Of a stretch of DNA of 20,698 nt, positions 6,072 to 18,007 are shown in pieces. Origin of the DNA: Thermoproteota archaeon. Lineage in GTDB: Archaea > Korarchaeota > Korarchaeia > Korarchaeales > Korarchaeaceae. The first letter of the stretch is position 1. Each line of letters opens with the position of its first letter. The position numbers and the translations under genes are program-made. The notes under the pieces were generated by a model. The model was not told the DNA's origin, searched no databases, and worked only from the letters and a program-made list of their open reading frames with translations. The DNA lies in the NCBI GenBank assembly GCA_037917625.1, contig JAVCBY010000043.1, positions 1-20,698 of the forward strand, in the 5' to 3' direction.

Positions 6072-6629
6072 ATGGAGGACCTGAGGGAGGAGATATTGAG
6101 GAGGTGGGAGAGCAACCCTATGCTGATACCTAGGGTCATGGCTGTGACCCTCAACATAGCCGTTGGGAGGAGCGGGGAAGTATTAACGAGAGCTGGAAAA
6201 GTTTTAGAAGAATTAACTGGCCAGAAACCAGTAGAGAGGAGGGCTAAGAGGACGATAAGGGAGTTTGGAATAAGGAAGAAGGAACCTATAGCTGTCTCAG
6301 TGACTGTAAGAGGTAAGAAGGCAGTTGAGCTCCTCGATAGAGTTGCTGAAGCAGTGGGGAGGAGGGTGAAAGCGAGTTCATTCGATGAGCTAGGGAATTT
6401 TGCATTCGGGATAAAGGAGCACATAGATATACCTGGAGTGAAGTACAAGGCTGAGATAGGGATATTCGGGATGGACGTCATAGTTTCCATCGGGAGAGCT
6501 GGTTATAGGATAGCTAGGAGGAGGATGGAGAGGAGAAGGGTTCCACTGAGGCACAGGGTAAGCAAGGCTGAGTCGATGTTATTCGTTGAGAAGTACTTAA
6601 ATCTGAAGGTAGTGCATGAGGAAGAGTAG
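6072..6629 (+). CDS. rpl5p: 50S ribosomal protein uL5
   Basis: NPM..P, LTGQKPV, FDELGNFAFGIKEHIDIPG, GIFGMDV. Confidence 0.97.
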   Translation: MEDLREEILRRWESNPMLIPRVMAVTLNIAVGRSGEVLTRAGKVLEELTGQKPVERRAKRTIREFGIRKKEPIAVSVTVRGKKAVELLDRVAEAVGRRVKASSFDELGNFAFGIKEHIDIPGVKYKAEIGIFGMDVIVSIGRAGYRIARRRMERRRVPLRHRVSKAESMLFVEKYLNLKVVHEEE

Positions 6630-9150: not shown

Positions 9151-9780
9151 ATGTACGAGGAAGAAGTGGAGAGGGAGTGGACACCCAGGACATGGGTGGG
9201 CCGCTTAGTAGCTGAGGGTAGGATAAAGAGCCTTGAAGAGATACTTAGGAGAGGTATACCGATTCAAGAGCCTGAGATAGTCGATATACTCGTTCCAGGG
9301 ATCAAGGAAGAAGTCGTAGAGGTGATAAGGGTTCAGAGACAGACGGATGCAGGAGAACTAACTCAGCTGAGGGTAGTGGCTGCTGTGGGTGATGGGATGA
9401 ACTACGTTGGCGTGGGCAAGGGGAAGGGGAAGGAGTTCAATATAGCTTTAGCAGATGCCGTTAGGAACGCTAAGCTGAACCTCATCAAGGTGAGGAAGGG
9501 ATGCGGCTCTTGGGAGTGCGGCTGCGGGAGGCCCCATTCGATAGCCGCTGCTGTGACCGGGGCATCTGGATCCGTCAGGGTGACGCTCCTCCCCGCCCCT
9601 AGGAAGCTGGGGATAGTTGGAAATGAGACGGCTAAGATAGTCCTCGGGCTAGGAGGACTTCAGGATGTCAGGGTATTCTCTAAGGGTCACACGAGGAACA
9701 GGATGAATTATGCTTTCGCATTACATGATGCCCTACGCAAATTGTTAGTAATGAACCTCCCCCAGGACTGGAGGGGTTGA
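9151..9780 (+). CDS. rps5p: 30S ribosomal protein uS5
   Basis: WTPRTWVGRLV, QRQTDAG, GCGSWECGCGRPHS, GSVRVTLLPAP. Confidence 0.97.
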   Translation: MYEEEVEREWTPRTWVGRLVAEGRIKSLEEILRRGIPIQEPEIVDILVPGIKEEVVEVIRVQRQTDAGELTQLRVVAAVGDGMNYVGVGKGKGKEFNIALADAVRNAKLNLIKVRKGCGSWECGCGRPHSIAAAVTGASGSVRVTLLPAPRKLGIVGNETAKIVLGLGGLQDVRVFSKGHTRNRMNYAFALHDALRKLLVMNLPQDWRG

Positions 9781-9788
9781 CCATCTCA

Positions 9789-9797
9789 TTTTTTAAA
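9789..9797 (+). promoter_or_regulatory. Internal TATA (and/or U-rich terminator) between rps5p and rpl30p
   Basis: TTTTTTAAA in the rps5p-rpl30p gap. It matches the TATA form seen before rpl14p and tRNA-Leu. Confidence 0.5.
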
Positions 9798-9809
9798 CTG
9801 ATGAGCTGA

Positions 9810-9880
9810 TTCCAGTGGAGCGCACCCGTTAGGCGCGGGGCGCACGATGGCGGGTGCGCCCGGAGGTGGTGAGCCTGGAA
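9810..9880 (+). promoter_or_regulatory. Structured RNA element in the rpl30p leader
   Basis: Perfect 9-bp stem GCGCACCCG(9820-28)/CGGGTGCGC(9851-59), extended by UUA/UGG and an inner GCGC/GCGC. Outer stem TTCCAG(9810-15)/CTGGAA(9875-80). Confidence 0.55.
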
Positions 9881-10354
9881 GAGATCCCTTTGATAGCGGT
9901 AGTTAGGATAAGGGGCAGAGTTAATGTGAAGCCTGAGATAAGGAGAACTCTCGAAATGCTATACTTACGTAGGAAGTTTTGGGCGACTCTAGTGCCTCTA
10001 ACGGATTCCTATAGGGGGATGCTCCACAAGGTGAAGGACTACTCTACTTACGGTGAGATAGATGAGCCCACTCTCTTAACGCTCCTCAGGGAGAGGGGAG
10101 AGCTCAAGATGGGTGGGAGCTTGAGCGATGAATGGCTCTCCAGCAACACAGATTTCTCAAGCATAGAGGAGCTAGCAAAAGCTCTCCTCAGCAAGAGGGT
10201 ATACTTACATAAGTTGGGGTGGATAAAGCCATATTTCGGGCTCCATCCACCCAAGGGAGGTTTCAAGAGGACGACTAAGAGGGCTTGGAACGATGGAGGG
10301 GAGCTCGGATATAGAGGAAAGGAGATAAATACACTGATCAGGAGGATGATATGA
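9875..10354 (+). CDS. rpl30p: 50S ribosomal protein uL30 (start uncertain: CTG 9875, GTG 9869 or TTG 9890)
   Basis: IAVVRIRGRVNV, TLEMLYL, GMLHKVKDY.TYGEI, LHPPKGGF, GELGYRG. Confidence 0.95.
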   Translation: MEEIPLIAVVRIRGRVNVKPEIRRTLEMLYLRRKFWATLVPLTDSYRGMLHKVKDYSTYGEIDEPTLLTLLRERGELKMGGSLSDEWLSSNTDFSSIEELAKALLSKRVYLHKLGWIKPYFGLHPPKGGFKRTTKRAWNDGGELGYRGKEINTLIRRMI

Positions 10355-10830
10355 TGAGCATACCCAGGAGGAGGAAGAAGTCGAGGAAGATGAGGGGATC
10401 GAGGCTTCACGGATATGGGTTGCAGAGGCAACATAGGAGGAGTGGGAGGAGAGGGGGCTTCGGAATGGCCGGAACGAAGAAGCACTTATGGACCTGGATC
10501 ACAGCATACGAACCTGATTACTTCGGGAGAGGAAGGAGGGGATTCAAGAGACCTAGGGCCGTGAGAAGGGAGATTAGGAGCATAAATCTCGCTGATTTAG
10601 ACAAGATGATCCCAGATCTTCTGAGATCCGGAATAGCTGAGGAGCGTGAGGACGGAAGGATTGAGCTCGATCTCGGGAAGATAGGCTATAATAAGCTGCT
10701 CGGGAGAGGGGAGATAAGCAAGCCTCTGCTAATTAAAGTTGGGAGCGCATCTAGGAATGCTGTTAGCAAGCTAGAGAGCATAGGTGGAAGCGTTATTTTG
10801 ACGGAGGGGGATTCTGATGAGTCTGATTAG
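10351..10830 (+). CDS. rpl15p: 50S ribosomal protein uL15
   Basis: RKMRGSRLHGYG, GRRGGFGMAG..KH, GYNKLLGRG, KLESIGG. Confidence 0.96.
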   Translation: MMSIPRRRKKSRKMRGSRLHGYGLQRQHRRSGRRGGFGMAGTKKHLWTWITAYEPDYFGRGRRGFKRPRAVRREIRSINLADLDKMIPDLLRSGIAEEREDGRIELDLGKIGYNKLLGRGEISKPLLIKVGSASRNAVSKLESIGGSVILTEGDSDESD

Positions 10831-12220
10831 GCAAATAATTTCTAAGATGAATAAAGGGATCCCGGAGGTTGAGAGACCAAAGAGATCACCGACTCTAAAG
10901 GAAAAACTCGCTTGGACGGGGCTCGTCCTCATAATTTATTACTTCCTCACGCAAGTCCCTCTTTATGGTGTGCCGAGAGGAGGCTTAGATTACCTAGCTC
11001 AGATAAGGGTGATATTCGCTGGCGCCCAGGGTAGCATAGTTGAGCTTGGTATAGGTCCCATAGTCACAGCTGGAATAGTATTAGAGCTCCTCGTAGGTAG
11101 TAAGATCGTCAAACTAGATCTAACTGATCCAGAGGATAGGAAGTTCTTCCAGGAAGCCCAGAGAGTTGCTGCTATATTCTTCATACTATTCGAGGTATCA
11201 GCTTATACTCTGGGAGGGAGGTTCGGAAACTTAACGACTCAGCAAGCTCTAATAACGATAGCTCAACTATCGCTCGGCTGCTTTCTATTGATGATGCTAG
11301 ATGATCTCGTGGCGAAGTGGGGGATAGGGAGCGGTATAAGTCTCTTCATATTAGCGGGAGTTGCACAAGAAGCGATTTGGTCTATGTTCTCGCCTAAGAT
11401 AGAGCCGACTACAGGTAGGTATGTGGGCGTCATACCCGCCTTGATATCTGAGGGCGTTGGAGCTATATATAGGGACTCCCTCCCAGGGCTTGTCGGCTTG
11501 ATATCGACATTCGTGGTCTTCATAGCGGTCATATGGGCTTACGAAGTTAGAGTGAACATCTCCATTGCTCACTCCTTATACGGTGGTCTCAGGACTAAGT
11601 ATCCAATAAGGCTCCTTTACGTGAGCAATGTCCCCATAATATTCGCCTCAGCCCTCCTAGGGGATATAGATATCCTCGCTAAGATCGCATGGTCCAGGCT
11701 GGGCTCTGAGACGAGCGGATGGGCTAAGTACCTCGTGGACTTCTTGGGGAGATATGAAGCAGATCCCGTTAGCGGGAGCGTGGTCCCAGTTCAAGGACTG
11801 GCTTACTATCTTACCACTCCTCATGGGCCCTCAGTTCTCGTTCAAGATCCGATAAGGGCTATAGTATACATAGTGATTCTGGTCGCTTCATGCATCGCTT
11901 TCGCTAAGATATGGGTGATGACGGCTGGTATGGATCCGAGGACCGTGAGCGAGCAACTAGTCAGGCAGGGGATTGTGGTCCCGGGGAGAAGGGCATCAGC
12001 GAAAGTAATAGCTAGGACGATAGAGAAGTACATAGAGGCCGTGACTTACCTCGGAGGTATCTTAGTTGGCTTACTCGCAGCAGTAGCTAACTTCACAGGA
12101 GCCTTCGGTACTGGGAGCGGTATACTCCTCGCGGTGACGATAATAGCTGGGCTTTACGAGAGACTCGCTCAGGAGCGTACGCTCGAGATGTATCCGAGGC
12201 TCAAGAGGTTCATAGGGTGA
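10817..12220 (+). CDS. secY: Protein translocase subunit SecY
   Basis: ELGIGPIVTAGI, KWGIGSGISLFI, YPIRLLYVSNVPII, GTGSGILLAV, with about 10 TM segments. Confidence 0.97.
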   Translation: MSLIRQIISKMNKGIPEVERPKRSPTLKEKLAWTGLVLIIYYFLTQVPLYGVPRGGLDYLAQIRVIFAGAQGSIVELGIGPIVTAGIVLELLVGSKIVKLDLTDPEDRKFFQEAQRVAAIFFILFEVSAYTLGGRFGNLTTQQALITIAQLSLGCFLLMMLDDLVAKWGIGSGISLFILAGVAQEAIWSMFSPKIEPTTGRYVGVIPALISEGVGAIYRDSLPGLVGLISTFVVFIAVIWAYEVRVNISIAHSLYGGLRTKYPIRLLYVSNVPIIFASALLGDIDILAKIAWSRLGSETSGWAKYLVDFLGRYEADPVSGSVVPVQGLAYYLTTPHGPSVLVQDPIRAIVYIVILVASCIAFAKIWVMTAGMDPRTVSEQLVRQGIVVPGRRASAKVIARTIEKYIEAVTYLGGILVGLLAAVANFTGAFGTGSGILLAVTIIAGLYERLAQERTLEMYPRLKRFIG

Positions 12221-12224
12221 TCAA

Positions 12225-12728
12225 ATGGATCTAAGCTTTATTCTCTTCCCGCCAGGCTCAATAATATTCCTCACATTTTTAGCATTAACCATAAGTCTTG
12301 GTGTTAATTTGATAAACAAGAGGACGATAAATTATGAGAGGATGAGGGAACTGCAGAAAATAGTGAAGGAATATACGGATCTTCAGAGGGAGTTAGTCAA
12401 GAATCCGGATGATAAGAGATTGAAGAAGAAATTGGATAAGATGAAGCCCCAGTTCGATGCTGCTAGGGCTGAGATTAGCAGGATGAACATGAGGCCTCTC
12501 CTCTACACAACTATACCCATAATTATGATCTTCTGGCTCCTCGGTAACTTCTACGCAGATATCCCAGTGATAAATTTACCATTCCCACTCCCCTGGATCT
12601 TGGATTACTTCCATAATAATTCAGGTCTTTCGAACCAGACTTTGGGTTACGTCGGTTATTATGTGATAGCATCATTCTTATTCTCAGCTATCTTCCAGAG
12701 ATTACTCGGAACAATTCCTTCTGAATAA
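12225..12728 (+). CDS. DUF106 / EMC3-TMCO1 (Oxa1 superfamily) membrane protein
   Basis: TM1, then a cytoplasmic coiled coil (ERMRELQK...KKLDKM), MRPLLYTTIP and further TMs. Canonical position after secY. Confidence 0.85.
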   Translation: MDLSFILFPPGSIIFLTFLALTISLGVNLINKRTINYERMRELQKIVKEYTDLQRELVKNPDDKRLKKKLDKMKPQFDAARAEISRMNMRPLLYTTIPIIMIFWLLGNFYADIPVINLPFPLPWILDYFHNNSGLSNQTLGYVGYYVIASFLFSAIFQRLLGTIPSE

Positions 12729-14468: not shown

Positions 14469-14556
14469 GCCGGGGTGCCCTAGCCCGGAAGGGGGCTGGC
14501 CTGGAGAGCCAGTGGCCCGTTGGGCCGCGTGGGTTCAAATCCCACCCCCGGCGCCA
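14469..14556 (+). tRNA. tRNA-Ser(GGA), intronless, CCA encoded
   Basis: Acceptor GCCGGGG/CCCCGGC, anticodon arm CTGGC-CTGGAGA-GCCAG, long variable arm GGCCC-GTT-GGGCC, T arm GTGGG-TTCAAAT-CCCAC, discriminator G plus CCA. Confidence 0.97.
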
Positions 14557-17919: not shown

Positions 17920-18006
17920 GCGGGGGTAGCCAAGCCAGGTCCAAGGCGCCCGCTTGAGGGGCGGGTGGGCGTCAGGCCCGCGTGGGTTCAAATCCCACCC
18001 CCCGCA
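17920..18006 (+). tRNA. tRNA-Leu(GAG), intronless, CCA not encoded
   Basis: Acceptor GCGGGGG/CCCCCGC, anticodon arm CCCGC-TTGAGGG-GCGGG, long variable arm, T arm GTGGG-TTCAAAT-CCCAC, discriminator A followed by CTA. Confidence 0.97.
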
Positions 18007-18007
18007 C

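Follow-up and report, generated by a model that had tools for sequence, protein, structure and literature searches.

Why are the genes for the ribosomal proteins uS5 (rps5p) and uL30 (rpl30p), which are usually tightly coupled, held apart by a long spacer in a korarchaeal gene cluster? This question is raised by a stretch of 20,698 nucleotides (nt) from a Thermoproteota archaeon of the family Korarchaeaceae (contig JAVCBY010000043.1, assembly GCA_037917625.1), which was analysed at full length and is called the window in this text. The surrounding genome is archaeal, measures 1.22 Mb and is 84% complete. A first inspection of the letters of the window (the original prediction) had described a separation of about 90 nt with a GC-rich hairpin in it and had proposed either a ribosomal protein leader or a promoter-dependent translational switch. 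We found that the gap measures 85–94 nt (uS5 ends at 9780 and uL30 starts at 9866–9875), compared with only 26–55 nt between the uS5 stop and the conserved uL30 codon in distant archaea (loci L025–L030). These archaea have essentially no spacer and thus, the premise of an unusual gap holds. The hairpin that occupies the gap is well supported as an RNA motif and narrow in its distribution. Its mechanism we infer, and our preferred reading is that of a candidate ribosomal protein leader.

Structure and stability of the hairpin

The hairpin is located at positions 9817–9861 of the plus strand, where G9817 pairs with C9861, and involves the following parts:

9817..9828, + strand: lower helix, 5′ strand (GG-a-GCGCACCCG), which pairs with 9851–9861 (minimum free energy fold, covariation)
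9829..9831, + strand: internal loop, 5′ side (UUA), with invariant A9831 (alignments)
9832..9845, + strand: upper helix and cap, with the pair G9832-C9845, a bulged A9844, GCGC (9833–9836) opposite GCGC (9840–9843) and the apical loop GGG (9837–9839) (alignments)
9846..9850, + strand: internal loop, 3′ side (GAUGG), with invariant A9847, U9848 and G9849, either G or A at 9846 and any base at 9850 (alignments)
9851..9861, + strand: lower helix, 3′ strand (CGGGUGCGC-CC) (minimum free energy fold, covariation)

As drawn here, the internal loop places UUA(G) opposite (A)C-GAUGG. According to the alignments, U9830 could also pair with G9849, and this pair would be U-G in Korarchaeum and C-G in a second genus of the family (g2). 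The hairpin, a TATA-like box, a Shine-Dalgarno (SD) sequence and two complementary hexamers had been part of the original prediction, and all of them were found at the positions given for them.

When the hairpin was folded alone, we obtained a free energy of −31.0 kcal/mol, which compares with −22.1 ± 2.8 kcal/mol for dinucleotide shuffles (z = −3.2; 2 of 200 shuffles were as stable). The hairpin is more stable than expected by chance, and the spacer as a whole is unremarkable (z = −1.5, with 16 of 200 shuffles reaching its stability). At 85°C, the 65 nt upstream of the uL30 start reach −9.4 kcal/mol and this is the stablest value among the upstream stretches of 1183 open reading frames (ORFs) of at least 120 amino acids in the genome. 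The best other stretch was at −8.5 kcal/mol and the first percentile at −4.1 kcal/mol, and several of the next-best cases were transfer RNA (tRNA) genes. RNA of the minus strand was rejected as the acting form. It folds more weakly (−37.8 vs. −43.5) and wobble positions would become A-C mismatches. Frequent G-U pairs on the plus strand, which correspond to A-C mismatches on the other strand, indicate that the sense of the RNA is that of the ribosomal protein genes.

Distribution, covariation, and the invariant core

For comparative analysis, we used 30 uL30 loci that were obtained from a search of 40 relatives. A hairpin between uS5 and uL30 was present in 23 of these 30 loci. Besides the window, they represent every other species genome of its genus (20) and two further genera of the family with a single genome each. 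It lies directly 5′ of uL30 in all 23 loci inspected and in four further loci of g2. A covariance model of the hairpin (R1; 52 positions, 16 pairs) matched 27 of 36 genomes of the family, 27 of 40 of the class and 27 of 43 of the phylum-level set, always exactly once per genome. Sorted by genus, the matches cover g1 (Candidatus Korarchaeum, to which the window belongs; 21/21), g2 (5/5), and g4 (1/1). On the phylum-level set, R1 gave no match in g3 (0/5), g5 (0/4), and the five remaining genera (0/7).

The helices are maintained by paired changes. In a MAFFT alignment of the 23 spacers, 94.0% of the cells were paired and 7 of 19 pairs were changed on both sides. Sliding the partners by 1–3 columns reduced pairing to 29%–58%, and none of 500 shuffles reached any of the five measures that we applied. 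RNAalifold recovered both helices, with compensation in 8 of 17 pairs, and predicted no further structure. When the copies were aligned with R1 (27 copies, 21 distinct sequences), 93.7% of the cells were paired and 7 of 16 pairs had changed on both sides; 2 of 500 shuffles matched this double-changed count and none reached the other four measures. The latter alignment is fitted to the structure and we gave more weight to the MAFFT result. The covariation is concentrated in the lower helix (both partners changed in 6 of 11 pairs, 90.7% of cells paired in the 21 distinct sequences). In the upper helix the sequence itself is invariant, four of its five pairs never vary, and the top pair is C-G, U-G, or U-A. 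The apical loop is variable in length (3–6 nt) and sequence (pairwise identity 0.372).

A core of 13 nt (AGGCG/CGC/CGAUG), which corresponds to AGGCG from A9831, CGC from C9841 and CGAUG from C9845 to G9849, has a pairwise identity of 0.993. For comparison, identity is 0.871 at codon positions 1 and 2 of uL30, 0.475 at codon position 3 and 0.507 in the upstream part of the spacer, and the covarying lower stem shows 81%. Thus, the stem is kept as structure, and the asymmetric loop together with the upper helix is kept as sequence. Such conservation would be expected of a specific recognition surface, to which a protein is predicted to bind.

The original prediction had named two possible outcomes that would speak against it, namely a hairpin that is absent or not covarying in relatives and a dispersed repeat or miniature inverted-repeat transposable element. 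What we found was a covarying hairpin in 27 of 43 genomes with one R1 match in each of them. In the 1.22 Mb genome, blastn-short recovered the self-match only and the strict core pattern occurs once. A metagenome pattern scan yielded at least 120 stretches; the 80 loci that were scored reached at most 25.8 bits with R1, none of them had the lower helix, and no new homologue was obtained.

A loose core match on contig C39 was rejected as a second copy, since it coincides with the start of an unrelated repeat protein gene. There, on the minus strand at about plus-strand position 6545, the sequence UAGGUGCG-CAUCUA-CGCACGAUG resembles the hairpin core. Its AUG is the start codon of the repeat protein (MKLTLFRKVASNPRSPPELL...) and lies about 20 nt 3′ of a TTTAAAT box, so this gene is nearly leaderless and its start is inside a small hairpin. 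Genus g3 (L023, L101, L103) has no hairpin and carries its own spacer of about 65 nt upstream of uL30, which contains the TATA-like palindrome CCTTAAA(A/T)AAGG, the conserved stretch GGTGT(T)..ATCG and GGAGGAAT before the ATG. This spacer, which has a Shine-Dalgarno sequence, may be a different leader.

The invariant core also carries an AUG (9847–9849) in all 27 copies, mostly out of the uL30 frame. An upstream ORF starting from this AUG was considered and rejected. It would encode 5–26 amino acids in 22 of 23 sequences, it does not keep one frame with respect to uL30 (in one sequence, L007, it is in frame) and no peptide is conserved beyond residues dictated by the stem. The AUG may be no more than a component of the recognition loop.

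Internal promoter and ribosome binding site

The hairpin is positioned between the signals for transcription and translation:

9789..9797, + strand: T6AAA, TATA-like box of the predicted internal promoter (sequence; spacing in homologous loci)
9815..9822, + strand: zone at the base of the hairpin where transcription is predicted to start (constant TATA-to-hairpin spacing and usual archaeal TATA-to-start distance)
9862..9870, + strand: SD sequence GGAGGUG(GU), directly adjoining the hairpin (complementarity to GGAUCACCUCCC, the 16S 3′ end in genome G012 of this genus)

In 26 of 27 copies from three genera, a TATA-like 7-mer starts 24–30 nt upstream of the first paired base, and these data support the internal promoter that had been proposed. 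The form of the box differs by genus, with TTTTTAA or TTTTATT for Korarchaeum, TTTATAA for g2 and TATATTA for g4. Only genome G002 (L020/L078) does not conform, and there the hairpin directly follows the uS5 stop. In archaea, the usual distance between the TATA box and the transcription start is about 26 nt. Because of this distance and the constant spacing between TATA-like box and hairpin, the start is predicted at the hairpin foot, and an internal uL30-uL15-secY transcript would begin with the hairpin. The oligo-T run at 9789–9794, 9 nt 3′ of the uS5 stop, could also be an archaeal terminator for the upstream transcript. If so, one T run would end one unit and start the next.

The SD itself (GGAGGUG) occupies positions 9862–9868 and follows the hairpin directly, as had been claimed; in the relatives, the linker between the two measures 0–5 nt. 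When folding was predicted at 85°C, only the hairpin persisted and both the SD and the start were unpaired. Since the SD is free in these folds, access to the ribosome binding site is not blocked by the RNA itself.

Comparison with known RNA elements

On the question whether the hairpin belongs to a described family, the answer is negative for Rfam 15. In the whole window only two tRNAs passed the gathering thresholds, and between 9600 and 10100 at E ≤ 10 the sole match was at chance level (14.1 bits vs. a threshold of 42). The claim that there is no described family therefore agrees with the Rfam scan. We found no description of a uL30 leader in the literature searched, nor, among the matches listed there, of a Korarchaeum ribosomal protein stem-loop in an untranslated region, which is not proof that none exists.

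A kink-turn (K-turn) consists of a three-nucleotide bulge followed by tandem sheared G-A pairs, with 5′-GA on both strands. K-turn operators bound by L7Ae or eL30 are found in the 5′ untranslated region of archaeal L7Ae and in the yeast L30e pre-mRNA. Our hairpin shares with them a small asymmetric purine-containing loop, the GA on the longer strand and the location before a ribosomal protein gene. In contrast to these operators, its shorter strand reads AG-G, and a bulged GA is followed by a U-A pair. In all 27 copies, GA is present on one strand only (5′ strand UUAGG, 3′ strand CGAUG), so tandem sheared G-A pairs are not formed and the K-turn was rejected. L7Ae, which had been listed among the candidate ligands, is not supported by a loop that lacks the GA-on-both-strands signature.

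A putative ribosomal protein leader

We consider the hairpin to be a new ribosomal protein leader, that is, a putative protein-binding translational operator on an internally promoted uL30-uL15-secY messenger RNA (mRNA), and we would give this assignment about even chances. From the two functions originally proposed, a leader thus remains the best reading, with protein binding as a prediction, and the switch does not (see below). Classical examples of ribosomal protein operators are the S8 operator of the E. coli spc operon and the L1 operator of Methanococcus. Our element lies 5′ of a ribosomal protein gene on the coding strand, has a covarying structure and abuts the ribosome binding site. 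In these respects, and in its single copy per genome and narrow taxonomic range, it resembles known leaders such as the candidates of Eckert and Weinberg (2020, PMC7247131), which include archaeal eL15 and S15 motifs. Many such leaders, though not all, resemble the site of their ligand in ribosomal RNA (rRNA), and the hairpin may do so as well (see below). Unlike the known leaders, the hairpin has no match in Rfam 15 and sits at an internal promoter inside an spc-like cluster. In the main text of PMC7247131, as distinct from its supplements, the terms L30, uL30, and Korarchae are absent.

A possible course of events is as follows. Transcription would start about 26 nt after the TATA-like box, so that the transcript begins with the hairpin. 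The GC-rich lower helix would hold the element folded at growth temperature and would display the invariant asymmetric loop and the upper helix (A-GGCG/CGC-w-C-GAUG) as a sequence-specific binding surface. A ribosomal protein that is in excess over free rRNA would bind to it and, with the SD beginning 0–5 nt after the last pair, the bound protein would block or trap the 30S subunit. Translation of uL30 would fall, and that of uL15 and perhaps of SecY would follow through tightly packed ORFs and coupling. Within the leader class, uL30 is our first choice as ligand, a tentative assignment that we hold with somewhat less than even confidence. It is based on the rule of thumb, used in the available part of PMC7247131, that the ligand is encoded in the regulated operon. 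It is also possible that uL15 or another rRNA-binding protein is bound.

Resemblance to ribosomal RNA

When we compared the hairpin with rRNA, two resemblances were observed in 23S rRNA. One concerns the internal loop of helix 41 (H41) in domain II, which reads GU-UAA-GGC/GCC-GAU-A, compared with GU-UA-GGC/GC(w)C-GAU-G in the hairpin. Both strands match in the right two-dimensional arrangement, and in both RNAs the loop is closed above by a G-C pair and continued below by a GC-rich helix. Compared with H41, the hairpin lacks one A on the 5′ side, and on the 3′ side it has an additional bulged base and two additional loop bases. Moreover, the hairpin position that corresponds to the U of UAA varies (A in G002, C in g2). 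The H41 loop is of the UAA/GAN type. The hairpin contains GAU, but its other strand reads UUA-G (AAA-G in G002; GCA-G or ACA-G in g2) and UAA is lacking, so it does not conform to this motif. Since the H41 loop is invariant in three genera, no co-variation of hairpin and H41 is measurable.

The second resemblance was obtained with the pattern UUAGG..(8–40 nt)..CGAUGG. In the rRNAs of the complete relative G012 it has a single match, at the junction of H99, H100, and H101. The 21 other copies of the pattern on both strands of the 1.22 Mb genome lead to an expectation of 0.044 in 5.2 kb of rRNA. This junction at the 3′ end of 23S rRNA (domain VI) shares with our element the succession of G-UUAGG(G)C, a hairpin, (U/A)CGAUGG and a G-rich strand. 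However, UUAGGGC of the rRNA pairs with a distant 3′ strand (H99), whereas UUA of the hairpin faces GAUGG, and nothing in the hairpin corresponds to the conserved H100 loop UAGAAGA.

Where uL30 itself binds has been described in several papers, of which we cite the parts available to us. It has been reported as a binder of domain II and of expansion segment 7 (PMC4671574; PMC12825303), the bacterial protein has been placed near H38 and H45 (PMC5071890), and contacts to domain gamma of 5S rRNA have been described (PMC5694952). A long N-terminus of uL30 fills a pocket formed by H39–H42, H89, and 5S rRNA (PMC10618245). Because these partial accounts place uL30 in domain II near H39–H42 and 5S rRNA, H41 is the more attractive model for a uL30 site.

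Two further rRNA sites were compared and rejected. The stretch CCCCGUAAGUCC...GGAUACUGCGGGG of the G012 16S rRNA, which we take to be the S8 site in helix 21, is superficially similar, but its 2-nt bulge is on the other side of the G-C pair. With 5S rRNA, only the word GUUAAGCC is shared and the opposite strand is dissimilar. The 23S rRNA of G012 (L032) measures 3548 nt, compared with 2993 nt in G015 (L031). The insertion of about 555 nt lies between G012 23S positions of about 1651 and 2771 and is presumably an rRNA intron.

Several observations weigh against the proposed leader or against its resemblance to rRNA. To our knowledge, no autoregulation by L30 is known in any organism. Two sister genera do without the hairpin (g3 and g5, as detailed above). 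A strict search for the same two-dimensional loop in 5S, 16S, and 23S rRNA was empty, and a loose two-strand scan returned 79 rRNA word pairs, compared with 22 ± 11 in shuffles. With 79 pairs of similar quality, such words are evidently common in rRNA and the scan is unspecific. The junction in domain VI varies between genomes (UCGAUG in four, UUGAUG in four, GUGGAUG in one) and the hairpin does not follow these changes. Since the two resemblances point to different sites, at least one of them is due to chance. In the part of PMC11354259 that was available, H41 is assigned to eL33/bL20 and not to uL30, H100 to eL31/bL17, and H101 to eL24/bL19 with uL14, and in that of PMC4671574 uL3 is called the major binder of domain VI. 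On the protein contacts of H41 and of H99–H101, the literature searched yielded coarse statements only. Taken together, the mimicry of rRNA is suggestive only and should be regarded as a lead rather than as a result.

If leader, ligand, and mimicry are combined, a joint reading emerges which we regard as doubtful. The element would be the first autoregulatory uL30 operator in any domain of life, the mRNA would start with a thermostable mimic of the 23S H41 loop, and free uL30 would bind to it and shut off production of uL30 itself, of uL15 and possibly also of the SecY translocon. Ribosome assembly would thereby be tied to secretion capacity in a deep-branching archaeon. Few ribosomal protein leaders are known in archaea, and for uL30 none was found described in Rfam or in the literature searched. 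The present candidate is supported by comparison across three genera, in which the structure covaries, the core is invariant and the position between promoter and SD is fixed. If a protein binds, the hairpin would show how a hyperthermophilic archaeon balances the synthesis of ribosomal proteins and SecY, and it would offer a compact (about 50 nt) and heat-stable RNA-protein pair for structural work. If no ribosomal protein binds, it would still be an unusually conserved 5′-terminal mRNA element that needs another explanation.

Alternative explanations

The hairpin might act on the mRNA rather than on its translation, as a 5′-terminal stability element that shields the uL30-uL15-secY mRNA from 5′-to-3′ decay or sets its half-life, with the loop being read by a non-ribosomal RNA-binding or decay factor. 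Its predicted location at the very 5′ end of the transcript, its rank as the stablest upstream structure of the genome at 85°C, the free SD and the lack of convincing rRNA mimicry would all fit this idea. However, a pure stabiliser needs a stem and not 13 invariant bases in loop and upper helix (99% identity) while the stem drifts. In addition, no other gene of the genome has a related element, and sister genera with a promoter-like spacer lack the hairpin. We consider a stability element unlikely. The promoter-dependent switch of the original prediction is very unlikely. It held that read-through transcripts hide the uL30 start by pairing of UUCCAG (9810–9815) with CUGGAA (9875–9880) and that transcripts from the internal promoter, which lack the 5′ strand, are translated. 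It can be seen that the two hexamers are complementary in the window, that an analogous pairing of 12–13 base pairs is possible in one clade (L011–L013, L016, L017; p = 0.003–0.11) and that the internal promoter is well supported. But when pairing of the 28 nt upstream with the SD and start region was compared with that of shuffled upstream sequences, only 3 of the 23 sequences did better at p < 0.05. In the other 20 the pairing was no better than in shuffles, the outer stem is absent from the RNAalifold consensus, and it melts at 85°C, which leaves the SD free. Neither the outer stem nor the switch that depends on it is supported by these data. Furthermore, a switch leaves the invariant internal loop unexplained, and in G002 the hairpin stands right after the uS5 stop without an upstream strand.

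A slightly smaller probability still is given to an RNA that senses small molecules (riboswitch) or temperature (RNA thermometer) and acts on the adjacent SD. An invariant asymmetric loop that lies beside the SD and occurs once per genome would be compatible with such a function, but the SD is unpaired at 37°C and 85°C in the predicted folds of most sequences and thus, there is no alternative fold that sequesters it. A pocket of 3 + 5 nt is also very small, no riboswitch of Rfam matches, and a ribosomal protein gene context is typical of protein-binding leaders. Least probable of all, even when taken together, are a DNA operator, at which a dimeric transcription factor would recognise the inverted repeat, and a separate small RNA or processing signal (K-turn for L7Ae, C/D or H/ACA guide, splicing-endonuclease site). 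The inverted repeat does overlap the predicted transcription start, a CUGAUGA..CUGA word is present at 9799–9809, and Cbf5 is encoded 3.6 kb downstream. However, the arms covary rather than keep their sequence, and they contain G-U pairs, which on the other strand or in a symmetrical DNA site would be A-C mismatches. Guide RNAs of the C/D type are bounded by conserved C (RUGAUGA) and D (CUGA) boxes, and those of the H/ACA type have a hairpin with a large pseudouridylation pocket that is followed by an ACA box. In our case, CUGAUGAGCUGA at 9798–9809 is adjacent to the hairpin and not terminal, and it is not conserved; the C/D-like word is found only in the window (L001) and in L004, whereas L002 and L003 read CTGAGGGACTGA. 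An ACA box 3′ of the hairpin and a large pocket are both missing. Both bulges are on the same strand, which differs from the bulge-helix-bulge of a splicing site, and the 5′ strand of the loop reads AG and not GA, as noted for the K-turn. This group of alternatives appears already largely refuted by sequence comparison. As an observation in its own right, CUGAUGAGCUGA looks like boxes C and D in immediate succession, which is probably due to chance.

Genes around the spacer

According to the ORF list and Pfam, the gene order of the region is eL32, eL19, uL18, uS5, uL30, uL15, SecY, an EMC3/TMCO1-like protein (DUF106), eL34, and Cbf5. The genes next to the spacer are:

9151..9780, + strand: uS5 gene (rps5p), the last gene 5′ of the spacer (ORF list; Pfam Ribosomal_S5 N and C domains; stop TGA at 9778–9780)
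9866..10354, + strand: uL30 gene (ORF list; Pfam Ribosomal_L30; candidate starts GTG 9866, GTG 9869, and CTG 9875)
10351..12728, + strand: downstream genes of the presumed transcription unit, namely uL15 (10351–10830), SecY (10817–12220), and the EMC3/TMCO1-like gene (12225–12728) (ORF list, Pfam)

The ORFs of uL15, SecY and the EMC3/TMCO1-like protein overlap with their neighbours or are 4 nt apart. The start of uL30 is ambiguous. In the window and five close relatives (L001–L006), a CTG (9875 in the window) is found at the position to which the TTG of 14 relatives aligns, and this TTG lies five to six bases 3′ of the SD. The in-frame GTGs at 9866 and 9869 are inside or directly after the SD in the window, and in L002 a GTG within the SD is the sole canonical start 5′ of the conserved uL30 N-terminus. 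Further downstream, the window carries tRNA-Ser(GGA) at 14469–14556 and tRNA-Leu(GAG) at 17920–18007, which measure 88 nt each according to ARAGORN and span 85 and 87 nt in the Rfam scan. Both are ordinary long-arm tRNAs that flank the region from Cbf5 to the ribosomal protein genes.

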